Assembly (NCBI GenBank): GCA_964425635.1
Contig: CAYRMT010000002.1
Span: 1-34,958 of the forward strand
Length of the DNA: 34,958 bases
Source: an uncultured Gammaproteobacteria bacterium
GTDB taxonomy: Bacteria > Patescibacteriota > Microgenomatia > UBA12405
Reading direction: 5' to 3'
Shown: positions 1,159-27,388 of the stretch, one piece after another
Layout of the letters: every line of letters begins with the position of its first letter
Numbering within the stretch: the stretch's first letter is position 1
Translations under genes and position numbers: made by a program
Notes under the pieces: generated by a model
Database searches by the model: none
What the model saw: only the letters and a program-made list of their open reading frames with translations
Told to the model about the DNA's origin: nothing

Positions 1159-1872
1159 ATGAAGAAACCAATAATAATTTTTATTTCAATTGGTATTGTT
1201 GTTTTAGTTCCATTAATTTTATTCCTAAATTTAGGTAAAAAAAATACATCTGATAATAAAACTGTTACCAAAACCACTACTCAAGCTACAAAAAAGATTG
1301 AATTATCAGCCGACGAAAAACCCTATATTAATCTTATTCCAAGTTCTGAAGGCCACAATTTAACATTTAAAATTAAAGATATCCCTACTAAATTTACCAC
1401 CGCTGAATACGAATTAATTTATACCGCCAAAGACGAAAATATAGAAATTGAAAAAGGAGTCAGTGGCACAGTTGAACTATCCGGAGGTACCCTTGAAAAG
1501 GATCTTTTATTAGGCACCGCTAGTTGTACTAATGGTTGTAAATACAAATATGATGAAGGTGTTACTGGAGGAATTCTAAATATAACCCTAAAAACAAATA
1601 ATAAGGAGTATTTTTCATATGAAACCCCATTTGTTCTGACAAATTCGGCCGATATTAATAAAGAAAAGAAAATAACTCTAGCTGAAGAAAATTTTATTAT
1701 CAACTGTACTACCACTTCTAAAAGTGACTTCTTCGTTGCTCTCAAAAATTTCCAATCAACTTATTCTGTCTTCTCGAGTGGTAATGGTAAAGGCAAAATC
1801 ACTTCAATAGAACCCACCACTATTACCAAAACAGATCTCACTTCAATAACTGGTGACTATACTTCCCAATAA
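1159..1872 (+). CDS. hypothetical N-terminally membrane-anchored protein
   Basis: 237 aa ORF starting 2 nt after the glyQS stop and overlapping the rsmH start by 1 nt. One N-terminal hydrophobic helix (IIIFISIGIVVLVPLILFL) is followed by a T/K-rich linker and a soluble domain. I recognise no family. It occupies the slot where mraZ usually sits. Confidence 0.6.
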   Translation: MKKPIIIFISIGIVVLVPLILFLNLGKKNTSDNKTVTKTTTQATKKIELSADEKPYINLIPSSEGHNLTFKIKDIPTKFTTAEYELIYTAKDENIEIEKGVSGTVELSGGTLEKDLLLGTASCTNGCKYKYDEGVTGGILNITLKTNNKEYFSYETPFVLTNSADINKEKKITLAEENFIINCTTTSKSDFFVALKNFQSTYSVFSSGNGKGKITSIEPTTITKTDLTSITGDYTSQ

Positions 1873-2738
1873 TGGATTTCCATACCCCTGTCTTATTAAC
1901 CGAAACCATTGACCTTCTTGATGTCCAAAAAAATAAAATTTATATTGATTGTACTCTTGGTCATGGTGGCCACACCATAGAAATTCTCAAAAGAGGCGGT
2001 ATTGTTTACGGTATAGATCAAGATCCAAAAAATTTAGAAATCGCCACCAATCGAATCAAAGAGGCAGGTTTTGAAAAACATTTTTTTCCAATTCATAATA
2101 ATTTTAATCAATTAGAAAATATCGTTATTAACGATATTAAACAAAAGATCAATGGTTTAGTCATCGATCTCGGCCTTAGTCAAAATCAACAAACTGATCA
2201 AGATAGAGGATTTTCGTTCAACGACAAAAATTCTCTCGATATGAGATTAGACCCAGAAAATCAAGAACTTACCGCTGAAGAAATTATTAATACCTATGAC
2301 TATAATGAACTTTTCGAGATTTTTAGTAAGTACGCCCAAGAAGTGTATAGTAAACCACTAATTCTAAAAATAATCCGTGAACGTCAAAAAAAACCTATCA
2401 GAACAGCCACAAGACTGGCAAATATTATTCGAGATTACTATAAAGAACATCATCATCAATCTAAAATTGATCCCAGCACCAAAATATTTTTAAGTTTAAG
2501 AATCATAGTCAATGACGAATTCAACAATTTAAGAGACATTCTTAATCAAAGTCTAAAAATTGTTATTCCAAACGGTAACGTTTGTATTATTTCTTTTCAT
2601 TCTGGAGAAGATAGAATCATTAAACAATTTATAAAAGATCACAATTTCCCCTCAAAGCCAATCAAACCCTCTTTTGCTGAAATCAAAAAAAATCCTCTCT
2701 CTCGCTCAGCCACTCTAAGATCGTATAAAATAGTATAA
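1872..2738 (+). CDS. rsmH: 16S rRNA (cytosine1402-N4)-methyltransferase RsmH/MraW
   Basis: HTPVLLTETIDLL, DCTLGHGGHT, DLGLSQNQ and ISFHSGEDRI motifs, plus first position in the dcw cluster. Confidence 0.95.
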   Translation: MDFHTPVLLTETIDLLDVQKNKIYIDCTLGHGGHTIEILKRGGIVYGIDQDPKNLEIATNRIKEAGFEKHFFPIHNNFNQLENIVINDIKQKINGLVIDLGLSQNQQTDQDRGFSFNDKNSLDMRLDPENQELTAEEIINTYDYNELFEIFSKYAQEVYSKPLILKIIRERQKKPIRTATRLANIIRDYYKEHHHQSKIDPSTKIFLSLRIIVNDEFNNLRDILNQSLKIVIPNGNVCIISFHSGEDRIIKQFIKDHNFPSKPIKPSFAEIKKNPLSRSATLRSYKIV

Positions 2739-2998: not shown

Positions 2999-4651
2999 GT
3001 GCAAAATTCAAGACCAAAAATATTATCTATTGCCCTAACTTTTTGTTTTATGGTCGTTTCTTTTCGTTTTTTTTATTGGCAAGTTTTAAAAGCTCCAGAA
3101 TTAAAAGAAAAAGCTAAAAATCAAACTTATAAACTTGAAAAAATATTGCCAGAACGCGGGAAAATATATTCTTCCGACAATTTTCCTCTGGTTCTCAATC
3201 AAACAACCTATCAGCTTTCCCTTTATAAACCAAATTTTAAAGAAGATTTGAATACAATTTTAGACAAAATCGAACAAGTCTATACAAACTTTAAAACTGA
3301 AAATAGCGAAGCTCTAGAAAAATTTAAAAATAATCCCAACCAAAAATGGATAACCTTCAATTCTGCTCTAAATGAAAAACAAAAAGATTTACTTAATATA
3401 CCTGGAATTGAATTTCAAAAAATAGAAAAAAGATTTTACCCAGAAAATTCTATGGCTAAAGATATTTTAGGAACCATCGGTAAAGATTTTAGTGGAAACC
3501 AAATTGGATATGGCGGACTAGAAGCTTTTTATCAAAAACAATTACAGGGAAAAACCGGTTTTATTTGGGGACCTCAAGATGCCACCGGAAAAACTATTTT
3601 AAATAAAAAAAACTGGAGTTCTGATGCCATCAATGGTAGAAATATTTTTACCAACATCAATCGCAGTGCTCAATTTTATGTAGAAAAACTTCTTCAAAAA
3701 GGCATTAATGATTTCTCTGCTGATTCCGGTTCAATTACCATCATTCAACCAAAAACTGGAGCGATTTTAGCTATAGCCTCTCTTACCGCCACCAGTTCTG
3801 CTACCCCAAGTTCAATTAGAAACCCAGCTATTTCTGACCTTTTCGAACCTGGATCAATTTTTAAACCATTAGTAGTTTCTATGGCTCTCGACACCAAAAC
3901 CATCGACACTAATTATACTTGCATCAAATGTAACCAACCTCATATTATTGGCAAATACAATATCAGTAATTGGGACAATGAATTTCACGCTAACTCTAGT
4001 CTTCAAGATATTATAAAAAATTCCGATAATATCGGCATGAGTTATATTATTGCCAGACTTGGCCTTGATAATTTTTTAAATTATTATCAAAAACTAGGAC
4101 TCACCCAAAGAACTGGTATTGATCTTCAAGGCGAAGCCAAACCAACCGTCAAAACCGAATGGCCAGAAATTGATTTAGCCACCGCTTCTTTTGGACAGGG
4201 GGTTGTTGTTACTCAAATCGGGATGCTTCAAGCCTTCAATGTTATTGCCAACGATGGTATTTTGGTTAAACCTAAAGTTGTCAATTATTTCACCGAAAAT
4301 AATAAAATTATTAAAAATAAAAATCAAAAAGAAACACAAGTTTTTAACCCACAAACAATAAAAGAAATTAAATCTATTTTAAAATATTCAGTCGAAAACG
4401 GTGTTGTGGCTAAAATGAAACCAGAAAATCTTGAAGTTTGTGCTAAAAGTGGCACTGCACAAGTAGCTATTAGTGGTAGTTATGAAAATAATTCTTCAAC
4501 CATTGCTTCATACATTGGTTTTTCACCTTGTTATAATCCTAAATTTACTATGATTGTGACTATTAATAACCCAAAAACATCACCTTGGGGATCAAGTACA
4601 GCCGCTCCAATTTGGTATGAATTGGCATCAAAATTAAACGATTTGTTATAA
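2999..4651 (+). CDS. ftsI: penicillin-binding protein 2 / FtsI-type peptidoglycan D,D-transpeptidase
   Basis: GTG start, N-terminal TM helix, and transpeptidase motifs SIFK (SxxK), SDN (SxN) and KSGT. Confidence 0.9.
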   Translation: MQNSRPKILSIALTFCFMVVSFRFFYWQVLKAPELKEKAKNQTYKLEKILPERGKIYSSDNFPLVLNQTTYQLSLYKPNFKEDLNTILDKIEQVYTNFKTENSEALEKFKNNPNQKWITFNSALNEKQKDLLNIPGIEFQKIEKRFYPENSMAKDILGTIGKDFSGNQIGYGGLEAFYQKQLQGKTGFIWGPQDATGKTILNKKNWSSDAINGRNIFTNINRSAQFYVEKLLQKGINDFSADSGSITIIQPKTGAILAIASLTATSSATPSSIRNPAISDLFEPGSIFKPLVVSMALDTKTIDTNYTCIKCNQPHIIGKYNISNWDNEFHANSSLQDIIKNSDNIGMSYIIARLGLDNFLNYYQKLGLTQRTGIDLQGEAKPTVKTEWPEIDLATASFGQGVVVTQIGMLQAFNVIANDGILVKPKVVNYFTENNKIIKNKNQKETQVFNPQTIKEIKSILKYSVENGVVAKMKPENLEVCAKSGTAQVAISGSYENNSSTIASYIGFSPCYNPKFTMIVTINNPKTSPWGSSTAAPIWYELASKLNDLL

Positions 4652-4664: not shown

Positions 4665-5966
4665 ATGGTTCAAAAATTCAAAAACGTCCTTATACATTTA
4701 CCAAAAAGTTTTTTTTACAATTTAAAGTACGGTTTTCCAAGTAAAAAATTAACTTTAATTGGTATCACTGGAACAGACGGCAAAACTACTACCTGCACCC
4801 TAGTTAATGAAATATTAAAACAATCTGGGCTAAAGACTGGATTAATTACTACTATTGGTGCAAAAATTGGGGATAAAGAAATAGATACTGGGTTTCACAC
4901 CACCACACCAGACCCGTCTATTCTTCAAAAAATTTTCAGCGACATGGTGAAAGCTGGCATTACTCATGTTGTCTGCGAAGTCACTTCACACGCCCTTGAT
5001 CAATATCGTTTTTGGGGTTGTAACTTTGAAATTTCTGGTATCACCAACACTTCACACGAACACCTTGATTATCATAAAAATTTAGAATCGTACATTGGAA
5101 CTAAATCTAAACTTTTCTCAATTTCTAAAAGCGCTATTCTGAACAAAGACGATCAATCGTTCGACTTAATAAAAAAACAAATTAAAATTCCTTTTAAAAC
5201 ATTTGGTATAAAAAAAACCTCAGATTATCAAGCCCAAAAAATTAAATTAGACTCAAATTCATTAAGTTTCCATGTTAATGGCCAAAAATTTATCACCGAT
5301 AGTAATTATGAATATCAAGTTTACAATATCCTTTTAGCAACCGCAATTTGTTATAAACTAGGAATAAAATCAGAAATAATTCAACAGGTAATAAAGCATT
5401 TTCCAGAAACAAAAGGTCGTCGAGAAGAAGTCCAAAATGAACTCAAATTTAAAACCATTATCGATTTTGCTCACACCCCATTTGCTCTTGAATCATCGCT
5501 TTCTTCACTCAAAAAAACTAATCCAGGAAAAACTATAGTCATTTTTGGAGCCACTGGTGGGCGAGATCAAAGTAAACGCCCAATAATGGGGGAAATCGTT
5601 TCTAAATTGGCCAATATAGCGTTAATCACATCCGACGACACCAGAAATGAAAAAATAGAAAATATCAACAAACAAATAATAAATGGTATTGATCCCAAAA
5701 AATCAGAACTAATTGATTATCAAGAAATTAAAAATAAAAAACAAATTCAAAAAGTAATTGAATTATCTAATAAAAAATTTATATATTTCAATATTCCCAA
5801 TCGTCAAGACGCATTTAATTTGGCCATAAAATTAGCTCAACCAGACGATGTCGTTATTGCTTGCGGTAAAGGCCACGAAACTACTATTCTTCACGGAAAT
5901 ACCGAGTATCCCTGGTCAGAAGCAGAGGCCTTCAGAACCGCTTTCAGGCTTCGAAAAACAAAATAA
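4665..5966 (+). CDS. murE: MurE-type Mur ligase (UDP-MurNAc-L-Ala-D-Glu:diamino acid ligase) lacking most of the N-terminal domain
   Basis: P-loop GITGTDGKTTT, HALDQYR, TNTSHEHLDYH, DFAHTP, GATGGRDQSKRP, TSDDTRNE (equivalent of the MurE DNPR motif) and GKGHE. Only about 35 residues precede the P-loop. Confidence 0.85.
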   Translation: MVQKFKNVLIHLPKSFFYNLKYGFPSKKLTLIGITGTDGKTTTCTLVNEILKQSGLKTGLITTIGAKIGDKEIDTGFHTTTPDPSILQKIFSDMVKAGITHVVCEVTSHALDQYRFWGCNFEISGITNTSHEHLDYHKNLESYIGTKSKLFSISKSAILNKDDQSFDLIKKQIKIPFKTFGIKKTSDYQAQKIKLDSNSLSFHVNGQKFITDSNYEYQVYNILLATAICYKLGIKSEIIQQVIKHFPETKGRREEVQNELKFKTIIDFAHTPFALESSLSSLKKTNPGKTIVIFGATGGRDQSKRPIMGEIVSKLANIALITSDDTRNEKIENINKQIINGIDPKKSELIDYQEIKNKKQIQKVIELSNKKFIYFNIPNRQDAFNLAIKLAQPDDVVIACGKGHETTILHGNTEYPWSEAEAFRTAFRLRKTK

Positions 5967-5967
5967 T

Positions 5968-6558
5968 ATGACAAAATTTAATTTAAAAAATACCAAAAGT
6001 ATTGATCAAAATTACCAAAATGGTCTTCTTCCTCAAAGGAATGACAAAAATTTATTTTATTCCCAAACCAGTTGTCGGTCTAATTTAAAAAATTTCAACT
6101 TAAGTTCTGAAAATCGTCGAATTTTAAGAAAAACAGAAGATTTCACCTTCGAAAAAATAAATCTAAAAGATTTCAACTACGATTCAAAAATTCAAAAAGA
6201 AATTACCATCTGGATAAAAACACTCGGTTGGAATTTTCCAGTCAGTTCAATAAAAAATGTTTTTAAAAACCATATTTTTAATTATCTTTACATATGGAAA
6301 GATGAACAAAAAAATATCATTGCCTATTCTCTTTGCTATTTTTCAAAAAACATTAGTCATATTGCCTATGTTTTTTATAATCCAGAATTCACCCATGGAA
6401 ATCTACCTATCCGTTTAGTTTTACAAGTCATCATCGACAGTCAAGAATTAGGTTTAAATTTTTGTTATCTCGGTCGCTTCTCTAAAAACACCGGTTTTTA
6501 TAAACGTAACATGCCAGGTTTTGAATATTATAAAGATAATCAATGGACTAAATTATGA
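5968..6558 (+). CDS. arginyl/leucyl-tRNA--protein transferase (ATE/Bpt) family homolog, minimal form
   Basis: The first ATG outside murE is at 5968, 1 nt after the murE stop; the 5848 start in the ORF track lies inside murE. Resembles Bpt/ATE: FNLSSENRRILRK (like the ATE_N LSRSQRR segment), and SHIAYVFYNPEF...LPIRLVLQVI...GLNFCYLGRFSKNTGFYKRNMPGFEYY...QW (like ATE_C FYDPE...YLGY...YK..F.P.E). ATGA overlap with the next gene. Confidence 0.6.
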   Translation: MTKFNLKNTKSIDQNYQNGLLPQRNDKNLFYSQTSCRSNLKNFNLSSENRRILRKTEDFTFEKINLKDFNYDSKIQKEITIWIKTLGWNFPVSSIKNVFKNHIFNYLYIWKDEQKNIIAYSLCYFSKNISHIAYVFYNPEFTHGNLPIRLVLQVIIDSQELGLNFCYLGRFSKNTGFYKRNMPGFEYYKDNQWTKL

Positions 6559-7928
6559 AAATACACATTTTAGGAATCGCCGGCACCATGACTGCTTCTC
6601 TAGCTGTCGCCCTTAAAAGAGAAGGTCACATTGTTTCTGGTTCCGACCAGGAAAAAATATATCCACCTATTAGTACTATCCTTAAAAAAGCCAATATTAA
6701 AATTAATTCATCCAAAATTGATTCCGATATAGATTTAGCTATCATCGGATCATCGTTCTCTAATTTTAAAAGAACTAAAGAAGAATTTGATCAAATTAAA
6801 AAATTAAAAATCAAATATGTTTCTGCCAGTGAATTTGTTGCTCAAAATTTGGGTAAAGAAAATTCAATTTTAATCGCTGGAACTTATGGTAAAACCACTA
6901 TTTCCTCCCTTGTTTCTTGGATTTTCGATCAAGCCAATTTAAAACCTAACTACATGTTTGGCGGGAAAGCCTTAAACCGCTTCCCATCAGTCAATAATTC
7001 ACCATCAAACTGGTCTATTATTGAAGCAGACGAATCAATTAATGGCCTCGATACTCAAGCTAAATTTTTATACTACCCGGTTAAATTTTTACTTTTAACC
7101 AGTGCTGATTGGGAGCACAAAGATTCTTATTCCACTGAAATCGAAAACTTTAATGCCTTCAAAAAATTAATTTTAAATATCCCCAAAGACGGCATTTTGT
7201 TTATCAATTCAAAAGGATATCAAACTAAAGAATTAAGTCTTTATTCAAAATCAAAAATAATTACCTACAATTCATCCACATCAGACTATTTTATTAAAGA
7301 TATAAAAATTAAAAAAAATTATACTATTCTATTCTGTCAAACTCCTAAAAATATTATTGAAATTAAAACCAAACTTATTGGTCAATTTAATTTTGAAAAC
7401 ATTTTGGCTGCCATTACTATCACTGATAGTTTAAACATTCCTCAAACTAAAATTAAACAGGCTATCTTAAAATTTAAGGGTATCAATCGTCGAATCGAAA
7501 AAATTTATGATTATAAAAAAATTATAATTTTTGACGATTTTGCCCAATCTCCCAATAGAATTAAATCAACGATTGAGGCTGTAAAATTACATTTTCCTAA
7601 AAACAAAATAAAAGTTTTATACCAACCCCACGCTTCTTTTATTCAACACAAAAAAAGTTTAAAAGAATTCAAAAACGTTTTTGATTCAGTTTCTGAAGTT
7701 GTTTTATCAAAATTAAGTTTTAATAATAAAATTAAAAAAAACAATCGTGTCACTGCCAAAAATTTTAAAGAGGTTATAGGTGATAAATTAATTTATCTTC
7801 CTGTTGACGAAGATATCCCTTCCTTTTACCAAAAAAATTTAACCCCAGGTGACATATTAATCAATATGAGTTCTGGTGGTTTAAGTGGAAATAAAATCAT
7901 CAAATCAATTATTAATTCTTTAAAATAA
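6555..7928 (+). CDS. mpl: Mur ligase of the Mpl/MurC family, closest in appearance to UDP-N-acetylmuramate:L-alanyl-gamma-D-glutamyl-diamino acid ligase (Mpl)
   Basis: N-terminus MKIHILGIAGTMTASLAVALKREGHIVSGSDQEKIYPPISTILKKANI, P-loop GTYGKTT, IIEADESI...KFLYYP, ADWEHKDSY, and C-terminus GDILINMSSGGLSGNKII. From memory these parallel E. coli Mpl (YPPMS, IIEADEYD, MSNGGFGG) better than MurC. Mpl versus MurC specificity cannot be settled by eye. Confidence 0.8.
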   Translation: MKIHILGIAGTMTASLAVALKREGHIVSGSDQEKIYPPISTILKKANIKINSSKIDSDIDLAIIGSSFSNFKRTKEEFDQIKKLKIKYVSASEFVAQNLGKENSILIAGTYGKTTISSLVSWIFDQANLKPNYMFGGKALNRFPSVNNSPSNWSIIEADESINGLDTQAKFLYYPVKFLLLTSADWEHKDSYSTEIENFNAFKKLILNIPKDGILFINSKGYQTKELSLYSKSKIITYNSSTSDYFIKDIKIKKNYTILFCQTPKNIIEIKTKLIGQFNFENILAAITITDSLNIPQTKIKQAILKFKGINRRIEKIYDYKKIIIFDDFAQSPNRIKSTIEAVKLHFPKNKIKVLYQPHASFIQHKKSLKEFKNVFDSVSEVVLSKLSFNNKIKKNNRVTAKNFKEVIGDKLIYLPVDEDIPSFYQKNLTPGDILINMSSGGLSGNKIIKSIINSLK

Positions 7929-7931
7929 TTT

Positions 7932-9260
7932 ATGTCCAGATACATTATTAATGGCGGCAAACCACTCAAAGGTGAGGTTTCGATTAGAGGTGCTAAAAAT
8001 GCCAGCTTTAAACAAATAATTGCTTCCATGCTAACCAATCAAACTGTCCGATTAAATAATGTTCCTCAAATTTCTGATGTAAAAATAACCACCAGTATTG
8101 CCAAAAATCTTGGTTGTCGAATAACTCAAACAGGGGATCATAGTCTTGAATTAACTACTCAAAAAATTATTAATTCTACTGTTCCTAGTGGTACTGGTGA
8201 AAAATCTAGATCATCATTTATGTTTGTTGCTCCTTTACTTACCAGAACTGGAACCGCCATCGTTCCAATTCCAGGTGGTGATAAGCTTGGCGATCGACCA
8301 TTGGACCGTCTTTTCGACTGTTTCTCTCAAATGAATATTAAAGTGTCTGAAAACGAAAACATTATTACTTTTAATACTGACAAAATTATTGGTACTCACT
8401 ACACTTTTACCAAACCATCACACACCGTCACTGAAGCTATTATCATGACTGCCGTTCTTGCCAACGGTGAAACAATCATTGACAATGCCGCCCTTGAACC
8501 AGAAATTGACGATTTAATTTTAATGTTAAATCAAATGGGGGCTAATATTCAAAGAGATTCCCAAAATAATAAAAGAATAGTTGTTCAGGGAGTTTCTAAA
8601 TTGAACGGAATAGAACACAACGTAATTTGTGATCGAAACGAAATTGTCACTTTTGCTTGTGCTGCCTTAGCCACCAAGGGCTCCGTTTCTATTTTTAGAG
8701 TCAAACCAAGCGTTGTTCAAACATTTTTAGAAATTATTAAAAAAATGGGAGCCAAAGTTAAAACCGGTAATGACGAAATTTATGTTGAATGGGTTAAACC
8801 ACTAACCAGTATTAATATTGAAACCGAACCAGAACCAGGATTTATGACCGATTGGCAGGCAATTTTTTCAGTCCTTTTAACTCAAAGTGTCGGTTGTAGT
8901 TCCATTATTGAAAAAGTCTATCCTAGTCGATTTCAACACATCGAAAATCTTAAAAAAATGGGAGTTAAAGTTAATTTTTTCAATCCAGAAATAAATAATC
9001 CCAAAGAATACTATCAGTTTAACCCAGAAAGTGACCGATTAGAATATTTCCATGGTGTTAAAATTTATGGCCCAACTAAATTAAAACCAGCCAATTTCAT
9101 TATTAAAGATCTTCGGGCAGGAGCTTCAGCTACAATTGCTGCTTTAACCGCATCAGGAAAATCAACTATTGATGGAGTTGAATATATTGAACGCGGATAT
9201 GAAAAATTAGCCGAGCGTCTTTGGTCTTTAGGTGCTAACATAGAATATATAAAAACATAA
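7932..9260 (+). CDS. murA: UDP-N-acetylglucosamine 1-carboxyvinyltransferase (MurA), Asp-type active site
   Basis: Full-length enolpyruvyl transferase: ISGAKNA-like IRGAKNAS, the active-site loop PIPGGDKLGDRPLD, and the C-terminal LRAGASATIAAL and ERGYEKL motifs. Confidence 0.95.
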   Translation: MSRYIINGGKPLKGEVSIRGAKNASFKQIIASMLTNQTVRLNNVPQISDVKITTSIAKNLGCRITQTGDHSLELTTQKIINSTVPSGTGEKSRSSFMFVAPLLTRTGTAIVPIPGGDKLGDRPLDRLFDCFSQMNIKVSENENIITFNTDKIIGTHYTFTKPSHTVTEAIIMTAVLANGETIIDNAALEPEIDDLILMLNQMGANIQRDSQNNKRIVVQGVSKLNGIEHNVICDRNEIVTFACAALATKGSVSIFRVKPSVVQTFLEIIKKMGAKVKTGNDEIYVEWVKPLTSINIETEPEPGFMTDWQAIFSVLLTQSVGCSSIIEKVYPSRFQHIENLKKMGVKVNFFNPEINNPKEYYQFNPESDRLEYFHGVKIYGPTKLKPANFIIKDLRAGASATIAALTASGKSTIDGVEYIERGYEKLAERLWSLGANIEYIKT

Positions 9261-9264: not shown

Positions 9265-10299
9265 ATGATTCATTTATACTTAGGTCTACTTCTCTTTTCT
9301 TTTTTAATAACCAGTATTTTGGTTGTCCCTTTTATTAATCTCCTTTATAAATTTAAATTTCAACGACAAACCCAAAAAACTACCGATTTTCAAAACAAAA
9401 GAGCTACTATTTTTGACAAATTTCACAACCAAAAATCAGGCACGCCAGTCGGTGGTGGCTTATTGATCATCGTTACTGTTTCTATTCTTTTTATTTTACT
9501 TTTCCCTATTCTCAAATTTTCCAAAATTTTTATTTCATCAAACTACACCATCACTCACGAAATCGCCATTCTATTTTTTACTTTTATCAGTTTTGGATTA
9601 CTCGGTCTTTACGATGACATTCTAAAATTTTTTGGATTCAAAAAAACCGGATTTTTCGGATTGAGAATGATCTATAAGTTAATATTACAATTAATAATTT
9701 CCCTAATCATTTCTCTAATGATTTATTTTCAACTAAGAATTGATTTTATCTATTTGCCCTTTTTTGGAGTTATTAATTTAGGGTGGCTTTTTATTCCAGT
9801 TTCAGTCGTTTTTATTACTGGGTTTGCTAATTTCTTTAATATCACCGATGGTCTTGATGGTTTATCATGCGGTCTTCTAATGTTTGCTCTTTTTGCTTTT
9901 TGGATTCTTGCCAGCACTTCAATGGACACTGTTCTTTCATCTTTTTTAGCCCTCTGGATTGGATCTCTAATTGCATTTCTTTATTTTAATGTTTACCCAG
10001 CCAGAATCTGGCTCGGCGATGTTGGTTCGCTTTCTTTTGGTGCCACTTTTGCCGTAATTGCTTTACTTCTAGGCAAAGTGGTTCCTTTACTTATTGTTGG
10101 GTCCCCATTTATCATTGAAGGATTATCCAGTACTATTCAATTATTCAGTAAAAAATATTTTCACAAGAAAATTTTTCCAGCTGCTCCAATTCATTTAACT
10201 CTTCAAAATTTAGGATGGGAAGAGCCAAAAATTGTTTTTAGAGCTTGGTTGGCTGGAATTATATTAGCAGTTTTTGGACTATGGTTAGGACTAAATTAG
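9265..10299 (+). CDS. mraY: phospho-N-acetylmuramoyl-pentapeptide transferase (MraY)
   Basis: Polytopic membrane protein with the NITDGLDGL, GDVGSL and QLFSKK..KIFPAAPIHL motifs. Confidence 0.95.
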   Translation: MIHLYLGLLLFSFLITSILVVPFINLLYKFKFQRQTQKTTDFQNKRATIFDKFHNQKSGTPVGGGLLIIVTVSILFILLFPILKFSKIFISSNYTITHEIAILFFTFISFGLLGLYDDILKFFGFKKTGFFGLRMIYKLILQLIISLIISLMIYFQLRIDFIYLPFFGVINLGWLFIPVSVVFITGFANFFNITDGLDGLSCGLLMFALFAFWILASTSMDTVLSSFLALWIGSLIAFLYFNVYPARIWLGDVGSLSFGATFAVIALLLGKVVPLLIVGSPFIIEGLSSTIQLFSKKYFHKKIFPAAPIHLTLQNLGWEEPKIVFRAWLAGIILAVFGLWLGLN

Positions 10300-10820
10300 A
10301 ATTACAACAAGAGATAGAAAAATATATTGGCCTACCTTATAGTAAAAATATTCTTAAAGACAGAAAAATAATCAAAGAACAATTTCTTGGAGGTAAGGGT
10401 AATTGTCTCCAAATTGCCACTGAAACCATCAGGCTCGCTCAAAAACAAAAAATAGATTTAACTAAATTAAACAATCAAGAATTTTATAATTTCCAAAAAA
10501 AGAATCATATTGGTATCGATTGCTCTGGTCTTGCTTGCCAATTATTAAACTTTTATTTTAGTTCTGAATTAAATCCTCGCAAAACTTCTGCCAATATGCT
10601 CACTTCCGCTCCAATTTCCAAAAAAATAAAACCAAACGAAATTAAAACAGGGGATTTGGTTCGACAAAAAAACGGTCATCACGTTTTATTTATAATTGAA
10701 AAAGAAGGCGATAAAATTCTTTATGTCGACAGCTCTCGCGAAGGCAGGGGAGTCAAATATAGTGTCGCCAATATCACCGACAAATCATTTATCCATCAAG
10801 GCTTTTTTAGATTGAATTAA
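10281..10820 (+). CDS. NlpC/P60-family cysteine peptidase-like protein, no signal peptide
   Basis: The first ATG is at 10281; the 10245 start in the ORF track is a TTG deep inside mraY. GIDCSGLACQLL carries the nucleophile Cys and GDLVRQKNGHHVLFII the His, matching the NlpC/P60 DCSGf / GDLvf..HVgiy pattern. The hydrophilic N-terminus suggests a cytoplasmic location. Confidence 0.65.
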   Translation: MVRTKLELQQEIEKYIGLPYSKNILKDRKIIKEQFLGGKGNCLQIATETIRLAQKQKIDLTKLNNQEFYNFQKKNHIGIDCSGLACQLLNFYFSSELNPRKTSANMLTSAPISKKIKPNEIKTGDLVRQKNGHHVLFIIEKEGDKILYVDSSREGRGVKYSVANITDKSFIHQGFFRLN

Positions 10821-10824: not shown

Positions 10825-10983
10825 TTATTTCTCTTCAATTAATTCCCTGTATTTCAACGGTTTTAAAGATAAAATCTCAACCTCAGTTCCACATTCAGGG
10901 CACTCAATTATATCTCCAACCATCGTGGCTTCTATTAATTCAATTTCTGTTTTACAATCAGGACAAATAACTTTTTCGTTCAT
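10825..10983 (-). CDS. LysW-like zinc-ribbon small protein (candidate amino-group carrier protein); absent from the supplied ORF track
   Basis: My translation gives 52 aa: MNEKVICPDCKTEIELIEATMVGDIIECPECGTEVEILSLKPLKYRELIEEK. It has an ATG start, a TAA stop and two CPxC knuckles. The layout mirrors Thermus LysW as I recall it (CPECGAEL...GELVVCEDCGAELEV..LDPLRL + acidic tail), but the tail ends EEK rather than EDWGE. Confidence 0.55.
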   Translation of the reverse strand: MNEKVICPDCKTEIELIEATMVGDIIECPECGTEVEILSLKPLKYRELIEEK

Positions 10984-11023
10984 ATTTTATTAAAATTAAT
11001 AACTAGTATAATTAAACTATTAT

Positions 11024-11845
11024 ATGGCAAATACACCTTTAATTAAATTAGAAAATGTTTATCTCAAAAGAGAAGACTTAAACGAAACTGGTTCTGCTAA
11101 AGATCGGGCTATGTTTTTTCAAATCGAAAATTTAAAAAAACAGGGTTTTAAAAATGCCGTAATTTCTAGTACTGGTAATGCTGCTATTTCTGCTGCCCAT
11201 TTTTGCCATTTAAATCAAATTGATTTAACTATTTTTGTTTCACCAAAAATCAATAAAGCTAAATTTGATTTACTTAAAAAAGATGGTGGTCAAATTTTTA
11301 TTACTGATCAACCCATCAGTGAATCTATAAAATTTTCCAAAAAAAATCATACTTATCTTCTTCGTCAATCAACCGATCCTAGTGCCCTAATTGGCTACCA
11401 AGAAATCGGCAAAGAATTAATGAATGAATTACCCCAAATTACCAGTATTTTCATCCCAGTTGGTAGCGGTACTACTCTTTTAGGAATCTCCCAAGTACTG
11501 CCATCATCAGTAAAAATCTATGCCATTCAACCAGCTAGCAATTGCCCCTTGTCTAAATTTTTTGATTCAAACTACCAATCAGAAACAGAAAATATAACCG
11601 ATGCCTTATCTGCTAAATTTCTTCCTTTAAAATCTCAAATAATTTCAACCATCAAAAATAGTGGCGGAACTGGTTTAGTTATTCAAAATAATGAAATTTT
11701 AGAAGCCCAAAAAATACTAGATTCAAATGAAATTAAAACATCTCTTGAGGGTGCCATGGCTTTAGCAGGCTTTAAAAAAGCTATCAAAAATAACCTAAAT
11801 ATTGGTAATTATCCAGTCATAATTTTAACCGGATGTCAAAGATAA
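11024..11845 (+). CDS. fold-type II PLP-dependent enzyme, threonine synthase / Trp-synthase-beta (PALP) family, short form
   Basis: TPLIKLENVYLKREDLNETGSAKDR carries the PLP lysine, followed by ISSTGNAAISAAHF and IPVGSGTTLLG (phosphate-binding loop). At 273 aa it is shorter than typical ThrC. Confidence 0.75.
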   Translation: MANTPLIKLENVYLKREDLNETGSAKDRAMFFQIENLKKQGFKNAVISSTGNAAISAAHFCHLNQIDLTIFVSPKINKAKFDLLKKDGGQIFITDQPISESIKFSKKNHTYLLRQSTDPSALIGYQEIGKELMNELPQITSIFIPVGSGTTLLGISQVLPSSVKIYAIQPASNCPLSKFFDSNYQSETENITDALSAKFLPLKSQIISTIKNSGGTGLVIQNNEILEAQKILDSNEIKTSLEGAMALAGFKKAIKNNLNIGNYPVIILTGCQR

Positions 11846-12939
11846 ATTTAGAAAAAATTATCAACAATTCTCCTTATATTTTCTTTTTTTTAGTGGTCGA
11901 TAAATATTTAGACATTGATATCCCTAAATTAAAAAACTTTGAAAAAATCTATCTTTCAGACTATCCGTCGATCAAAGAAAAAAACAGTGGCAAATTATTA
12001 TCAAATTCAAAAGTTATTGATTTTATTCTTAAAAAATCTCAAAAAGCCAAACTCACACCTGCTATCATTCCTTTCAAACCATCTGCCAAAATTGACTTGA
12101 TTTGTCAAAAAAATAATTGGGTAAGTATTAGTAATCCAGGCCCCATTAATCGTTTTTTGGAAGACAAAATTAAATTTGCCAAACTTTGTCAAAAATATAA
12201 ATTATCAACTATTCCTTTTTCTATCGATACTTTCTCACAAAAAAATTTTTTGAAATACCAAAAGCTGTACGGTAAAAAATTAGTTATTCAAACCCATTTT
12301 GGTTGGGCAGGTAATAGTACATTTTCGGCCGAATCTTGGGATGAAATTAAAAACAAAATTTCTTCTGGTATCATCGTAAAATACAGTCCTTTTATTCAAT
12401 CTTCTTACTCTTTACTAAATAATTGCTGTCTTACCAAATTTGGTTTAATTCAAAGCCCGCCCGCCCTTCAATACACCGGAATTTCTCCATACACCAAAAA
12501 TCCTTTTACCACCGTCGGTCGCCAATGGCCATCCTTTGCTCCATTAAAAACAAAAGGTGAAATTAATAAAATAACTGAAAAATTCGGTAAAATTTTAAAA
12601 GAAATTGGCTACAAAGGTTTTTTTGGTCTCGACTTTTTGGTCTATAAAAACAAAGTTTTTTTATTAGAATGCAATCCTCGTTTAACTGCCTCTTTTGGTT
12701 TTTACACAACAATAGAAGAAAAACAAAATATTACCCCTCTCTTTTATTTTCATCTTGCCGAATTTTTAAAACTTGATTATCAAATCGATATTAAAAAAGA
12801 AAAGACCAGATTTAACAATAAAAAAATTATCGGTTCAGAACTAACTCCTAAAGATAAAAATAATCATACCTGTCAAAAATTAAACTTTAATTTTCCTTTA
12901 TCAAAAACCACTAATCCTATTTCTCTAAAAATTAAATGA
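11833..12939 (+). CDS. ATP-grasp family carboxylate-amine ligase, specificity unknown
   Basis: C-terminal ATP-grasp core: KLVIQTHFGWAGNSTF, GYKGFFGLDFLVYKNKVFLLECNPRLTASFG. Overlaps the upstream PLP gene by 13 nt and the ftsW start by ATGA. Does not look like Ddl or a Mur ligase. Confidence 0.7.
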   Translation: MSKINLEKIINNSPYIFFFLVVDKYLDIDIPKLKNFEKIYLSDYPSIKEKNSGKLLSNSKVIDFILKKSQKAKLTPAIIPFKPSAKIDLICQKNNWVSISNPGPINRFLEDKIKFAKLCQKYKLSTIPFSIDTFSQKNFLKYQKLYGKKLVIQTHFGWAGNSTFSAESWDEIKNKISSGIIVKYSPFIQSSYSLLNNCCLTKFGLIQSPPALQYTGISPYTKNPFTTVGRQWPSFAPLKTKGEINKITEKFGKILKEIGYKGFFGLDFLVYKNKVFLLECNPRLTASFGFYTTIEEKQNITPLFYFHLAEFLKLDYQIDIKKEKTRFNNKKIIGSELTPKDKNNHTCQKLNFNFPLSKTTNPISLKIK

Positions 12940-14102
12940 AAGAAACTAAATCCCCACTTTTATTTTTAGTTTTCAGTTTGGTCTTTATTGGACTAATTTT
13001 TATTTCCATCTCATCATTAAGTGAAGCCAGCTCATCAATTGGAGACAAATTTTTTTACATTAAAAAACAAGTATTTTGGCTAATTTTAGGAATATTTTCT
13101 TTTTATATAACTTCCAAAATAAATATTAAAACCATTAAAAAATTTTCTTTCGCTCTTTATACTATTTCCATCCTTGGACTAATATTAGTTTTAATTCCAA
13201 GTTTAGGCAACGAAGCCCTCGGTGCCAGACGCTGGCTAAATTTAGGTTTCACCAGTATTCAACCTTCAGAAATTTTAAAATTAACCTCCATTATTTATTT
13301 TTCTTTTCTTTTTTCAAAAAAAGAAAATCTTCATATAAAAAATCTTATTTTTTATCTTGGTTTGCCATTCATTTTAATAATTATCGAACCAAATTTAAGC
13401 ACCGCTATTTTAATTTCAGCTATTGTCAGTTCCATTTATTATCTTTCTGGAGGAGATATTGTCCCTTTGTTTAGTATTTTTAGTATTATTCTAATTGTCA
13501 GTATTCCCTTAATTTTTTTATCACCATACAGATCAGCCAGATTAAAAACTTTTTTAGAACCGCAGCAAAATCAAGAAACTTCCTCATATCACAGCAACCA
13601 AATAATTTTAACCCTATCTTCTGGAGGAATTTTTGGTAAAGGTTTTGCCAATTCAGACCAAAAATACAAATTCCTTCCTAAAATTTCCACCGATTCAATC
13701 CTTGCTGTTATTGGTGAAGAAGTTGGTTTTATAGGAATTTTTGCAGTTCTTTTAATTTATCTTTCTTTAATAAATTATCTTTTAAAATTTTCTCAAACAA
13801 TCGACGATCCATTTCAAAGTTTAATAGTATCCGGAAGCGCCTGTTGGATTGCTTATCAAAGTTTAATCAATATTTCTGCCATCACTGCTCTTATTCCACT
13901 CACCGGGGTCACTCTTCCATTTATTTCCTATGGCGGCTCTTCACTTATTACACTTTTTGTCGTTATTGGTCTGGTTAGAAATATCGAAAAAAACCAAAAA
14001 AAATTGTTATACTCAAAGAGTGAACAAGACAAAAAAGACGATCATAATCACCGGAACACATCTAACACCAGCCCTAGAACTAATTCGTCAATTGAAAGCT
14101 GA
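12936..14102 (+). CDS. ftsW: SEDS-family peptidoglycan glycosyltransferase FtsW
   Basis: Ten-TM-type protein with RWLNLGFTSIQPSEILKL, SDSILAVIGEEVGFIG and LPFISYGGSSL motifs, at the dcw position before murG. The hydrophilic tail overlaps the murG start region. Confidence 0.9.
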   Translation: MKETKSPLLFLVFSLVFIGLIFISISSLSEASSSIGDKFFYIKKQVFWLILGIFSFYITSKINIKTIKKFSFALYTISILGLILVLIPSLGNEALGARRWLNLGFTSIQPSEILKLTSIIYFSFLFSKKENLHIKNLIFYLGLPFILIIIEPNLSTAILISAIVSSIYYLSGGDIVPLFSIFSIILIVSIPLIFLSPYRSARLKTFLEPQQNQETSSYHSNQIILTLSSGGIFGKGFANSDQKYKFLPKISTDSILAVIGEEVGFIGIFAVLLIYLSLINYLLKFSQTIDDPFQSLIVSGSACWIAYQSLINISAITALIPLTGVTLPFISYGGSSLITLFVVIGLVRNIEKNQKKLLYSKSEQDKKDDHNHRNTSNTSPRTNSSIES

Positions 14103-15096
14103 TAAAAAAAATGATTGGCAAATAAATTACATCGGTCGAAAAAATAATTCTAGTGTCGACAAAAATCCTTCGATTGAATCAAAAATTATCCCAAAAACAG
14201 GTATTAAGTTTTATTCAATTAATTGTGGTAAATTTGATCGCCGTTGGGTTCCTAATACTATTAAAGGTCTTCCGCAAACCATTAAATCATTATTTGAAGC
14301 CTCAAAATTAATCAAAAAAATAAAACCAGACATAGTTATTTCCTTTGGTGGATACGTTTCTGTTCCGGTTATTATTAGTAGTTTTTTTAGAAAAATACCA
14401 TCAATTACCCACGAACAAACTTTAACCAACAGCTTAACCACTAAAATCAATAGTTTTTTTGTCAACAAAATCGCTCTTTCTTTTAACAATCAGCAACAAA
14501 AAGAAAAACTACCAAAAAACAAAATTGTTGTTACAGGAAATCTCTTAAGGCAAGAATTGTTTCACCCTCAAAAAAATAAAATAGGGGACAACATCGACAT
14601 TTTTATAACTGCTGGCAATCAAGGCTCTCATGTAATAAATATTTTAATTAAAAAAATTCTTCCTGAATTAAAAAATTATTATATTATTCACCAAACAGGT
14701 AAAAAAGATTTTTTTAGTTTTAAAAAATTAACTAAAATTCATCCTAAATATAAAGTTTTTGATTATCTAGAATCAAAAGATATGGCCTATGTTTTAAACA
14801 AGACAAAACTAGTTGTTGGCCGTTCCGGCGCCAACACTTGTCAAGAAATTGTCGCCCTAAACAAAAAATCTATTTTAATTCCCCTAAAAATCAGTCAACA
14901 AAATGAACAATTACTAAATGCTCTTTGGGTTAAAGAAAAAAACCCAAAAAATACCCAAATTTTAGAAGAAAAAGATATTACTGAAAAAAATATTTTAGAA
15001 AAAATTAAAAAATTAATTACCAATAAAAACAAAAAAAACATTTCTAAAAACACTGATAACCTAAAACTTTTAAATTTAATCCATGAAATTCTTTAA
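14020..15096 (+). CDS. murG: undecaprenyldiphospho-muramoylpentapeptide beta-N-acetylglucosaminyltransferase (MurG)
   Basis: GT28 features: N-terminal beta-strand plus loop IIITGTHLTPALEL (degenerate form of GGTGGH..PAL), FGGYVSVPV, GRSGANTCQEIVALNKKSILIP. The frame is open from the ATG at 13930, deep in ftsW. I favour the GTG at 14020 (VNKTKKTIIITG), but the start is uncertain. Confidence 0.85.
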   Translation: MNKTKKTIIITGTHLTPALELIRQLKADKKNDWQINYIGRKNNSSVDKNPSIESKIIPKTGIKFYSINCGKFDRRWVPNTIKGLPQTIKSLFEASKLIKKIKPDIVISFGGYVSVPVIISSFFRKIPSITHEQTLTNSLTTKINSFFVNKIALSFNNQQQKEKLPKNKIVVTGNLLRQELFHPQKNKIGDNIDIFITAGNQGSHVINILIKKILPELKNYYIIHQTGKKDFFSFKKLTKIHPKYKVFDYLESKDMAYVLNKTKLVVGRSGANTCQEIVALNKKSILIPLKISQQNEQLLNALWVKEKNPKNTQILEEKDITEKNILEKIKKLITNKNKKNISKNTDNLKLLNLIHEIL

Positions 15097-23395: not shown

Positions 23396-24235
23396 ATGAT
23401 GAAACAGGTTACCCAAATTCCAACTAATCAATTAGAGCCAAATCCATTACAGCCCCGAGGTATTATCAACCAAGAGTCAATTTCCGAATTAATCGAGTCT
23501 ATTAAAGAGCATGGAATACTAGAACCACTCATTGTCGCTAAAACTCCAGCCGGATACCAAATAATTGCCGGAGAAAGGCGCTGGCGTTCCGCTAGAGCCC
23601 TTAAATTAGAATACGTTCCAGCCATTATCAAAGAAAGCACTCCACAACAAATGTTGGAAATGGCCATAGTTGAGAATGTTCAACGAAAGGATCTAAACCC
23701 AATGGAACGAGCTAAAGCATTTTTAAGACTTAAAGAAGAGTTTAGTTTCGATAACAACCAAATAGCCAAAAGAGTTAGCAAAAGTGTCCCTTATGTTATT
23801 AATTGTCTTAAATTATTAACTCTCCCAGATGCTATTAAGGATGGACTTTTGTCTGGCCTCATCAGCGAAGGTCATGCTCGTGCCTTATCCAGCATAGGAG
23901 ACACCAGATTAATGATCGAAGCCTATAAAATTATTTTAAAAGAAAAAGCTTCTGTTCGTCGTGCCGAAGACATTGCCAGAAGAATGAGAAAAAAAATTGA
24001 AGAAGGCGATGTTCCAATCACCAAGGAGAATTTACCTCAATTTTTAAAATCAAAAATTGACAACATCAGTCAAGACCTACAATCTGTTTTTAACAAAAAA
24101 ACCACTTCTGTAAAAATTATTCAAACTAATGTTTTAACCAAGGTAACTTTTCAATTTAAAGGACCAATCGACCAAAGATTTGACGAACTAAAAAACCTTT
24201 ATAAACAAATCTGTAATAAGGATCTACAAAATTAA
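23396..24235 (+). CDS. parB: ParB/Spo0J-family chromosome partitioning protein
   Basis: IPTNQLEPNPLQPR, GILEPLIV, the YQIIAGERRWRSA box, and an HTH region (NQIAKRVSKSVPYVINCLKLL). No parA/soj is adjacent in this window. Confidence 0.9.
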   Translation: MMKQVTQIPTNQLEPNPLQPRGIINQESISELIESIKEHGILEPLIVAKTPAGYQIIAGERRWRSARALKLEYVPAIIKESTPQQMLEMAIVENVQRKDLNPMERAKAFLRLKEEFSFDNNQIAKRVSKSVPYVINCLKLLTLPDAIKDGLLSGLISEGHARALSSIGDTRLMIEAYKIILKEKASVRRAEDIARRMRKKIEEGDVPITKENLPQFLKSKIDNISQDLQSVFNKKTTSVKIIQTNVLTKVTFQFKGPIDQRFDELKNLYKQICNKDLQN

Positions 24236-24831
24236 AACTTAACTTTTGGAACTAAACCCACCGAAGATATTGGCCAATATTTAAAAAACGCCTTTCCTAC
24301 AATTAATTCCTTTTTAATTGGACCAAATTCTCGACCATCTCTAGAATGTTGCCTATTGTCACCAAAACATAAATATTCACCACTAGGTACTATTTCTTCT
24401 TCACCCTCTTTAGAATATTCCCCCTCAACAGTGACAACTCCATTTGGTAAAAAAGTTTGATCTAATAATTGTCCATTCAAATAAACTTGACCTTCTCTAA
24501 CCATCACTCTATCACCAGGAACACCAATAATTCTCTTAATATACTCACATTCATCGGCAGCACAAGGCTCACTTGAAGGAGCTTTAAAAATAACCACATC
24601 TCCTCTTTGCGGTTCACCCAAATAATAAGAAATTTTTTCTGTTAATAAAAATTCTTTATCCACAAAATTTGGCAACATAGAACTTCCTTTTACCTCATTG
24701 GGCTGAGCCACAAAAAGATACAATAACACAAAAACTGCCAAGGCCAAAACAATCGATTGAATAAAATCTAAAATAAAACCACCAATCGACCCTCTCTGAT
24801 TTTTATAAATTTCACTCTTCATAATTATCAA
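24232..24831 (-). CDS. lepB: signal peptidase I
   Basis: TM anchor, GSSMLPNF (catalytic Ser), GDVVIFK, KRIIGVPGD (catalytic Lys) and GDNRQHSRDGR boxes. Confidence 0.9.
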   Translation of the reverse strand: MIIMKSEIYKNQRGSIGGFILDFIQSIVLALAVFVLLYLFVAQPNEVKGSSMLPNFVDKEFLLTEKISYYLGEPQRGDVVIFKAPSSEPCAADECEYIKRIIGVPGDRVMVREGQVYLNGQLLDQTFLPNGVVTVEGEYSKEGEEEIVPSGEYLCFGDNRQHSRDGREFGPIKKELIVGKAFFKYWPISSVGLVPKVKF

Positions 24832-24854
24832 TTATAGTGGAATTTTGGTTGACT

Positions 24855-24863
24855 TGGTATAAT
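24855..24863 (+). promoter_or_regulatory. extended -10 promoter for tRNA-Val
   Basis: TGGTATAAT (TGnTATAAT) ends 12 nt before the mature tRNA 5' end. Confidence 0.5.
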
Positions 24864-24875
24864 CTAATTCATCAA

Positions 24876-24949
24876 GGTTGTTTAGCTCAGTTGGTTAGAG
24901 CGTTCCGTTCACATCGGAGAGGTCACAGGTTCGAGTCCTGTAACAACCA
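24876..24949 (+). tRNA. tRNA-Val (anticodon CAC)
   Basis: Manual cloverleaf: acceptor GGTTGTT/AACAACC, D arm GCTC-AGTTGGTTA-GAGC, anticodon arm TTCCG-TTCACAT-CGGAG, T arm ACAGG-TTCGAGT-CCTGT, discriminator A. CCA is not encoded. Confidence 0.9.
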
Positions 24950-27361: not shown

Positions 27362-27388
27362 AATTTAAATGTAAATTATTTATCAAAT

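Follow-up and report, generated by a model that had tools for sequence, protein, structure and literature searches.

A conserved gene module in the murD position of Shapirobacteria-type operons that may supply an amino acid for the cell wall on a LysW-like carrier protein

Introduction

We describe here a gene module in a 34,958-nt stretch of DNA (the window: contig CAYRMT010000002.1 of assembly GCA_964425635.1, GTDB lineage Patescibacteriota, Microgenomatia, UBA12405), in which a minimal fold-type-II pyridoxal phosphate (PLP) enzyme of the PALP family and an ATP-grasp ligase are encoded by overlapping genes within the division and cell-wall (dcw) operon. We have found that the genes for the PALP enzyme, the ligase, a LysW-like zinc-ribbon protein and usually an NlpC/P60-like protein constitute one conserved unit, and that at least three lineages have this unit linked with genes of peptidoglycan precursor synthesis, two of them in the murD slot and one beside murD. 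The reading that we favour, at a probability of roughly 0.4, is a carrier-dependent and PLP-dependent supply of a D- or unusual amino acid for the cell wall at the MurD/MurE stage, the chemistry of which we infer by analogy. On this reading, the module would provide a peptidoglycan building block rather than replace a Mur ligase; the known element would be the tailoring of amino acids by a carrier protein and an ATP-grasp ligase and the new one the cell-wall setting, and there is a smaller chance that a new step of stem-peptide assembly is involved.

Peptidoglycan precursor synthesis is regarded as among the most uniform of bacterial pathways, and the Candidate Phyla Radiation (CPR) has a reduced metabolism and is almost wholly uncultured. 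The module joins a LysW-type carrier, a non-RimK ATP-grasp ligase, a minimal PLP enzyme and a cytoplasmic NlpC/P60 peptidase, and no description of such a combination was found in targeted searches of literature on CPR, Patescibacteria, Shapirobacteria or Microgenomates with peptidoglycan, ATP-grasp, LysW, murD or racemases. If the favoured reading is true, this would be the first amino-group-carrier-like protein used in cell-wall synthesis and a new route to a D- or unusual amino acid of the stem peptide. The module bears on the source of D-glutamate or of a residue of the diaminopimelate (DAP) type in ultra-small bacteria, and because it consists of four small soluble proteins it is directly testable.

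Conservation of the gene pair and its partners

An earlier note, made from the letters of the window, had described a threonine-synthase-like PLP enzyme and an orphan ATP-grasp ligase that are coupled to ftsW in the murD position. The two open reading frames (ORFs), at 11024–11845 (273 aa) and 11833–12939 (368 aa), are exactly as claimed there and sit between mraY and ftsW, which is the place of murD in the canonical dcw order. The ATG of the ligase gene at 11833 lies before the PALP stop codon at 11843–11845, giving the 13-nt overlap that had been noticed, and the ligase TGA at 12937–12939 overlies the ftsW ATG at 12936–12938 in an ATGA junction. All motifs quoted for the two proteins are present, being invariant or nearly so among orthologues. 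The word orphan did not hold, because a LysW-like ORF (10825–10983, minus strand) and an NlpC/P60-like ORF (10245–10820) go with the pair.

In GTDB genomes taken at one per species, relatives of the ligase are encoded in 125 stretches; of these, 80 loci with 42–87% identity were kept and read as ±10 kb around the matches, the gene order being obtained by a phmmer-based synteny analysis. Homologues at E ≤ 1e-3 numbered 432 and 535 for the two proteins, respectively, and the nearest ones are annotated as Candidatus Shapirobacteria or Woesebacteria; we assign the window to Candidatus Shapirobacteria, a group of the CPR. Many GTDB records with an operon of this Shapirobacteria type (L008, L009, L014–L016 and others) are titled 'uncultured Gammaproteobacteria bacterium', which looks like a placeholder or a mislabel.

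With < marking the opposite strand, the order RsmH-PBP-MurE-AteLike-MurC-(MurA)-MraY-NlpC-<LysWlike-PALP-ATPgrasp-FtsW-MurG-(FtsQ)-FtsA-FtsZ-IleRS-RodA is near-invariant; in Shapirobacteria and related Microgenomates the module fills the gap between mraY and ftsW. The NlpC-like, LysW-like, PALP, ATP-grasp and FtsW genes stand together in 65 of the 67 loci with enough flank, the NlpC-like gene being directly upstream of the LysW-like gene in 65/67, so that the co-occurrence with a LysW-like ORF, which the earlier note had proposed to check, was borne out as MraY-NlpC-<LysW-PALP-ATPgrasp-FtsW. The LysW-like gene has been found in 75 loci, divergent from the PALP gene and in most cases 34–44 nt away from it. 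Across the loci, a 4-nt overlap or a 1-nt gap is the usual junction between the PALP and ligase genes, and the ligase gene overlaps ftsW by 1–83 nt in nearly all of 79 loci, with 4, 14 and 8 nt as the common values. The coupling of PALP enzyme and ligase is thus supported by the usual overlap of their genes and also by the existence of PALP+ATP-grasp fusions (see below). Both genes are real, under selection and in a fixed peptidoglycan context.

In the window, the LysW-like gene on the minus strand breaks the operon upstream of the PALP gene, and therefore the 40-nt divergent intergenic region may be where transcription of PALP-ATPgrasp-ftsW-murG begins. A promoter scan gave one promoter-like match in this region (10996–11023), a match count not above that of shuffled sequences.

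Fusions and other lineages

A profile search of 1.84 billion representative proteins gave 217 relatives of the ligase at E ≤ 1e-30. Fusions of PALP and ATP-grasp domains, 780–782 aa long, occur in Patescibacteria (P0300/P0391 and also P0392); fusions of ATP-grasp with a C-terminal NlpC/P60 domain occur in other CPR (P0319, P0351 and P0296, the record of which is named Peregrinibacteria); and one protein combines ATP-grasp with GNAT (P0363). Quite apart from the gene order in Shapirobacteria, such fusions link the ligase with both the PLP enzyme and the NlpC/P60 protein. The ATP-grasp+NlpC/P60 fusions suggest, by analogy with glutathionylspermidine synthetase/amidase, that one bond may be both made and cut.

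Three further lineages have the LysW-like gene alongside PALP and ATP-grasp, one of them outside a dcw operon. In this last lineage, two loci with PALP+ATP-grasp fusions (L086 and L087) and a close relative without the fusion (L088) are arranged as MurD, <LysW-like and PALP(-)ATP-grasp, the trio lying outside any dcw operon, with mraY about 2–2.5 kb off on the other strand in L086 and L087. The adjacent MurD is bona fide (TIGR01087, 258–264 bits against a cut-off of 212). A sister lineage, whose ligase scores 276 bits on the family profile, has MurE-AteLike-MurC-MurB-MurA-MurF-MraY-NlpC-<LysWlike-PALP-ATPgrasp-FtsW-MurG (L092), and a second locus repeats this order as far as its contig end (L097); in this operon MurA, B, C, E and F are all present and only MurD is missing, the module occupying its slot. 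In L095, the module again comes with the LysW-like gene, and the Ate-like protein of this locus is fused to MurC (645 aa, L095:3331-5268).

The PLP enzyme

The PALP protein matches PF00291 at 152.7 bits (Pfam cut-off 35) and is accordingly a fold-type-II PLP enzyme. Among 22 orthologues GSAKDR (with Lys26), SSTGNAA and GSGTT (from G147) are invariant or nearly so, and RQSTDP and TS.EG are also conserved; the enzyme retains the catalytic PLP lysine and the phosphate loop.

Its best NCBIfam match is PRK08329, an archaeal-type 'threonine synthase' (ThrC), at 101.7 bits against a cut-off of 358, and the ThrC model TIGR00260 gives 36.8 bits against 167.1. The alignment to PRK08329 covers positions 64–336 only, and thus the N-terminal domain of ThrC is absent, which would fit an active site open to a protein tail. 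In an alignment with Bacillus subtilis ThrC, stGnaa stands opposite STGNTS of that enzyme and dPsa opposite its NPYR; these ThrC residues bind the substrate phosphate, and O-phosphohomoserine therefore seems an unlikely substrate. Orthology to ThrC was rejected on these grounds, i.e. scores far below the cut-offs, no N-terminal domain, and phosphate-binding residues (GNT; NPxR) that are not matched.

The profile of the PALP family gives about 60 bits alike against threonine deaminases, cysteine synthase and ThrC, and 46–51 bits against serine racemases; against solved serine and aspartate racemases it gives 41–51 bits, no better than against deaminases or O-acetylserine sulfhydrylase (OASS). 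An AlphaFold2 model (mean predicted local confidence, pLDDT, 91) compared by Foldseek resembles ThrC, threonine deaminase, OASS and serine racemase alike (TM score 0.80–0.87, 17–23% identity), and the enzyme stands no further from OASS and SbnA than from ThrC. In fold-type-II serine and aspartate racemases the G-N of the S-S-G-N loop follows a Ser that is a second catalytic residue; in the orthologue alignment Thr50, not Ser, precedes Gly-Asn.

The ATP-grasp ligase

The ligase belongs to the ATP-grasp superfamily by its match to PF02655 (ATP-grasp_3, 31.3 bits; Pfam cut-off 23.2). In 26 orthologues GFFGLDF and LLECNPRLTAS are invariant, as is E279-x-N281-x-R283, and the catalytic Mg/ATP ExNxR motif is therefore retained. 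The AlphaFold2 model (pLDDT 92) is most similar by Foldseek to biotin carboxylase, PurK and PurT, with probability 1.0, a TM score of about 0.6 and 11–17% identity, which is a generic likeness; sequence and profile searches of PDB gave no solved structure near the ligase in sequence. The top curated model for the ligase (103.2 bits) and for all its relatives (88–194 bits) is PRK06524 'biotin carboxylase', the cut-off of which is 684.

Three assignments were considered. Biotin carboxylase was rejected, PRK06524 being far below threshold and Pfam finding ATP-grasp_3 only. Ddl was down-weighted, because no Ddl family, PF07478 included, matched in Pfam (E ≤ 0.01) or NCBIfam (E ≤ 0.001) and because a sister locus carries a canonical Ddl (L098, see below); no Ddl structure was among the 50 best Foldseek matches either. 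RimK/LysX/ArgX was rejected with PF08443, TIGR00768 and TIGR02144 unmatched. ThrC, Ddl, RimK/LysX and biotin carboxylase are thus all discarded as orthologues of the pair; every NCBIfam equivalog score falls far short of its cut-off, in agreement with the statement of the earlier note that neither protein is a canonical enzyme, and the combination that it had named as refuting its reading, clear housekeeping orthology with a variable genomic context, was looked for and is not what we see.

More remote relatives of the ligase (L093, L094 and L096) are found in unrelated contexts such as surface-polymer or peptide-modification clusters, and thus the peptidoglycan link holds for this sub-clade and not for the whole PRK06524-like family. 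In one of these clusters (L094:4075-12930), the distant relative P0325 is accompanied by a seven-transmembrane (7TM) transglutaminase protein, a second ATP-grasp protein (ATPgrasp_ST), MATCAP, an N-formylglutamate-amidohydrolase-like protein, a faint Ddl-like protein and GNAT, and the whole has the look of a separate system for modifying a peptide or polymer.

The LysW-like protein and the NlpC/P60-like protein

Amino-group carrier systems are marked out by having a LysW-type protein together with an ATP-grasp ligase, although the ligase of the module comes from another ATP-grasp clade. The LysW-like protein of the window has two CxxC pairs, an isoelectric point (pI) of about 4.1 and the C-terminal tail ...PLKYRELIEEK, and it matches the globular zinc ribbon of LysW (PF21344) at 45.1 bits against a cut-off of 27. 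It stays under the equivalog cut-offs (TIGR01206 lysW, 37.2 against 53.2 bits; NF041070, 34.4 against 75). True LysW has the tail EDWGE, ending in Glu, and a tail of this type was not found. In all 75 Shapirobacteria-type loci the tail has a terminal Lys and Glu at −2, position −1 being Glu and rarely Gln or Thr, and the tails from four loci of other lineages likewise end in EEK. Such conservation would place the functional site at Glu(−2) or at the terminal Lys, in its amino or its carboxyl group.

The NlpC-like protein matches PF00877 at 24.1 bits against a cut-off of 23, and the D-C-S-G motif with Cys93 and His146, i.e. the catalytic Cys and His of NlpC/P60 enzymes, are present in the 10245–10820 product and invariant among 23 orthologues. 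The protein has no signal peptide, its true start being probably Met13, and we predict a cytoplasmic peptidase. Its family profile gave no significant match to PDB.

A proposed carrier-tethered supply of an amino acid

The favoured reading follows the logic of LysX or ArgX with LysW. At the expense of ATP, the ATP-grasp ligase would couple an amino acid through an amide bond to the C-terminal tail of the carrier; the minimal PLP enzyme would turn this amino acid, its alpha-amino group being free, into a D- or non-proteinogenic residue for the MurD/MurE stage; and the NlpC/P60 enzyme would free the product. PLP enzymes need a free alpha-amino group, and hence the amino acid cannot be attached through that group, unlike the case of LysW; either a carboxyl or an amino group of its side chain would hold it, or loading would follow the PLP step. 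Our leading guess at specifics, which is also the most economical scheme but holds a minority share of this carrier-supply model, is a D-Glu version: L-Glu would be bound by its gamma-carboxyl to the terminal Lys, at the epsilon-amino group, and epimerised there to D-Glu, and the peptidase would then act as a D-specific gamma-glutamyl peptidase, the released D-Glu feeding MurD. Members of NlpC/P60 typically cut gamma-D-Glu-Lys/DAP bonds. The conserved LysW-like partner speaks for ligation onto a protein tail no less strongly than for ligation onto the stem peptide. There are precedents for carrier proteins of this kind in LysW/LysX and in CysO-MoeZ-CysM-Mec+.

Several points weigh against this reading. 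The ligase lies outside the RimK/LysX clade, so that carrier loading would hold by analogy only. Neither sequence nor fold (AlphaFold2 with Foldseek; profile against PDB) points the PALP enzyme to one reaction type, and no glutamate racemase is known to us among the fold-type-II PLP enzymes; as a free racemase could do without a carrier, the rationale for tethering is speculative. The LysW-like gene is on the opposite strand to the pair. An NlpC/P60 partner was not detected in L086–L088, and thus release by NlpC/P60 cannot be universal. An electrostatic pairing of the carrier with its enzymes was also considered, as the LysW-like proteins have a median pI of about 4.1–4.2 and the PALP, ligase and NlpC-like proteins a pI of about 9.3–9.5; it does not discriminate, MurE, MurC, MurG and RsmH of the same loci being as basic.

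A stronger version, which we hold to be improbable, has the module replacing both MurI and MurD in these Microgenomates: residue 2, D-Glu or another, would be made on the carrier and installed by the ATP-grasp ligase, and the N-terminally shortened MurE (see below) might use a non-canonical intermediate. If true, this would amount to a carrier-protein-dependent branch of peptidoglycan precursor synthesis.

Alternative explanations

The earlier note had read the pair as supply and ligation of a D- or unusual amino acid for the stem peptide, replacing steps of the ddl/alr/murD type. The peptidoglycan context of this reading is near-invariant and stands; the replacement is not supported. In its developed form, which we consider rather unlikely, a free PLP racemase or replacement enzyme would make the product and the ATP-grasp enzyme would ligate it into the nucleotide-linked stem peptide, taking over from MurD (with MurI) or from Ddl/MurF (with Alr). 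The module is exactly in the murD slot, the L092/L097 operon is short of MurD only, and ATP-grasp and Mur ligases both use acyl-phosphate chemistry. Moreover, no murB, murD, murF, ddl, alr or murI is within the window, and no MurD-, MurF- or Ddl-like ORF is within ±10 kb in the 85 Shapirobacteria-type loci. However, MurB is gone from the Shapirobacteria operon too, although MurA and MurC are in it; it must be encoded elsewhere, the same can hold for MurD, MurF and Ddl, and absence from the operon therefore says nothing on absence from the genome. Bona fide MurD adjoins the trio in L086–L088, and a short contig of a close relative of L092 (L098:1-3920) carries MurB-MurA-Ddl-MurF, with a canonical Ddl between MurA and MurF (173 bits to Escherichia coli DdlB), and stops before the mraY-ftsW region. 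In addition, no Ddl model or Foldseek Ddl structure matches the ligase, and the replacement leaves the LysW-like partner and the NlpC/P60 fusions unexplained. A metagenome scan with the L092 MurF by exact 8-mers gave two close relatives and otherwise unrelated phyla only, and is uninformative on MurF of Shapirobacteria.

It is unlikely, in our estimate, that the pair builds a branch in the manner of Racfm/Aslfm, in which the PLP enzyme would make a D-amino acid and the ATP-grasp ligase would place it on the precursor, either on residue 3 by way of the epsilon-amino group or on D-Glu by way of the alpha-carboxyl, with the LysW-like tail mimicking the ...Glu-Lys end of UDP-MurNAc-tripeptide as a regulator, decoy or alternative acceptor. 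A racemase with an ATP-grasp D-aspartate ligase is a two-gene precedent, the invariant C-terminal Lys of the carrier with its free carboxylate resembles the tripeptide terminus, and the Ate/Bpt-like transferase in the same operon hints at a branched peptide. Against this, no reason is given for a dedicated folded zinc-ribbon protein, and the MurE of the window fits models of the DAP type best (NF001126, 366 bits, against 202 bits for the Lys-type NF010628), with DDTR in place of DNPR, the motif of E. coli MurE, so that the Arg is kept. The DAP-type appearance of MurE mildly disfavours a Lys-branch model and keeps a diamino-acid idea alive.

That idea takes the form of a CysO/CysM-like system, which we regard as quite improbable. 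The ATP-grasp enzyme would activate the C-terminal carboxylate of the carrier or reload Lys onto a ...Glu-Glu tail, the PLP enzyme would carry out a beta- or gamma-replacement in which the carrier brings the nucleophile (e.g. a thiocarboxylate or the epsilon-amine of Lys), and the peptidase would free an amino acid that contains sulfur or is of the diamino-dicarboxylic kind, a lanthionine- or DAP-like surrogate, for MurE. The four parts map onto CysO, MoeZ, CysM and Mec+, the PLP enzyme is as near to OASS and SbnA as to ThrC, MurE looks DAP-type, and CPR bacteria are generally without amino-acid biosynthesis; on the other side, the module goes with murD and not murE in L086–L088, no sulfur-transfer gene is nearby, and no thiocarboxylate-making ATP-grasp enzyme is known to us.

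A function outside the cell wall, i.e. RimK-like modification of a small protein or a housekeeping amino-acid pathway travelling with the operon, is the least probable explanation: remote ligase relatives do lie in the unrelated contexts of L093, L094 and L096, and CPR operons are compact and mixed, with GlyRS and IleRS flanking this one, but almost every one of the 85 Shapirobacteria-type loci has the module in the same place, the ligase/ftsW overlap is kept in nearly all loci, and the module stands independently beside murD and near mraY in a lineage without a dcw operon.

Relation to known systems

The closest likeness is to LysW/LysX (ArgW/ArgX) of Thermus and archaea, which share a small acidic zinc ribbon with a conserved acidic tail, encoded next to an ATP-grasp ligase. 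The module differs in its tail (Glu-x-Lys and not EDWGE, with TIGR01206 below cut-off), in a ligase outside the RimK/LysX family, in its partners, which are a fold-type-II PLP enzyme and an NlpC/P60 peptidase and not LysZ, LysY, LysJ and LysK, and in its context, which is the dcw operon and not lysine or arginine synthesis. CysO-MoeZ-CysM-Mec+ of Mycobacterium tuberculosis is alike in that a fold-type-II PLP enzyme acts on an ATP-activated carrier C-terminus and a protease releases the amino acid; CysO is, however, ubiquitin-like and ends in Gly-Gly, whereas the putative carrier of the module is a zinc ribbon ending in Glu-Glu-Lys, and adenylation and a JAMM-type protease stand there in place of ATP-grasp and NlpC/P60.

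Racfm/Aslfm of Enterococcus faecium is alike by gene pairing only, an amino-acid-converting enzyme with an ATP-grasp ligase for the peptidoglycan precursor; the Racfm racemase is PLP-independent, and neither a carrier protein nor a peptidase takes part in that system. MurD/MurI and MurD2/MurL of Xanthomonas are D-Glu routes encoded beside murD, and the location of the module in the murD slot or next to murD makes a role in the supply of residue 2 plausible; the module has no Mur-ligase fold, MurI-type racemase or MurL homologue, and its chemistry would be PLP- and carrier-dependent. Glutathionylspermidine synthetase/amidase, an ATP-grasp-like domain with an amidase of the CHAP/NlpC-P60 type, resembles the ligase relatives fused to NlpC/P60, whereas in the window the domains are separate genes. 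As to PRK06524, it is the best curated model for the ligase, yet no Pfam biotin-carboxylase domain is found.

Genes of the operon and other features of the window

The window is AT-rich, with a GC content of about 30%, and the features of the operon are collected in Table 1.

Table 1. Features of the dcw operon in the window, with positions counted from its first nucleotide
Feature	Position	Strand	Remark
RsmH	1872-2738	+	First gene listed of the dcw operon
PBP2/FtsI	2999-4651	+	dcw operon
MurE	4665-5966	+	dcw operon
Ate/Bpt-like protein	5848-6558	+	Between MurE and MurC
MurC-type ligase	6555-7928	+	dcw operon
MurA	7932-9260	+	dcw operon
mraY (MraY)	9265-10299	+	dcw operon
NlpC/P60-like cysteine peptidase/amidase, 191 aa as called	10245-10820	+	PF00877, 24.1 bits
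LysW-like zinc-ribbon protein, 52 aa	10825-10983	-	PF21344 Zn_ribbon_LysW, 45.1 bits
Divergent AT-rich intergenic region, 40 nt	10984-11023	.	Between the LysW-like gene and PALP; possible bidirectional promoter
PALP, minimal fold-type-II PLP enzyme, 273 aa, ThrC-like loops	11024-11845	+	PF00291, 152.7 bits
ATP-grasp carboxylate-amine ligase, 368 aa, PRK06524-like clade	11833-12939	+	PF02655, 31.3 bits
FtsW (SEDS polymerase)	12936-14102	+	PF01098, 301 bits
MurG (longest ORF)	13930-15096	+	Directly after FtsW in order
Small FtsQ-like ORF, FtsA, FtsZ, IleRS, RodA	After MurG, in that order	+	Last genes listed

MurE (window 4665–5966; L092:142-1332; L095:2003-3334) is 396–443 aa long and aligns to the models only from about position 70–104, and its N-terminal domain, which binds UDP in E. 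coli MurE, seems to be missing; MurF of L092 (L092:5867-7114) likewise begins at about model position 73. The MurC-type ligase at 6555–7928, which besides MurE is the sole Mur ligase of the operon, reaches 242 bits with the murC model (cut-off 335) and 172 bits with mpl, and its L092 counterpart 292 and 254 bits, which places it between MurC and the peptide-adding Mpl and leaves the substrate that it adds uncertain.

The Ate-like protein (5848–6558, about 205 aa) resembles arginyl/leucyl-tRNA-protein transferases, with weak but consistent matches to ATE_C and NCBIfam arginyltransferase models (E down to 9e-8), and it keeps the same position in nearly all loci that reach there; its family profile gave no significant match to PDB. 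It may perform a tRNA-dependent, FemX-like step on the precursor. Its called start overlaps MurE by 119 nt, and the true start is probably later. In the same way, the longest ORF of MurG (13930–15096) overlaps FtsW by 173 nt while its Pfam match begins at residue 41; the true start is probably downstream and the overlap an artefact of choosing the longest ORF.

A 237-aa ORF (1159–1872, plus strand) with no family match lies between GlyRS and RsmH, a frequent site of mraZ, and is kept in loci that extend that far, e.g. L027, L051, L053, L061, L066, L080 and L097. At 24000–27400 of the window the GC skew falls to about −0.4 and the GC content is 26–28%, over an 812-aa ORF (24923–27361, minus strand) with LCAT/PGAP1-like lipase and 3-keto-disaccharide-hydrolase-like domains, after which glycosyltransferase and O-antigen-ligase-like genes follow.

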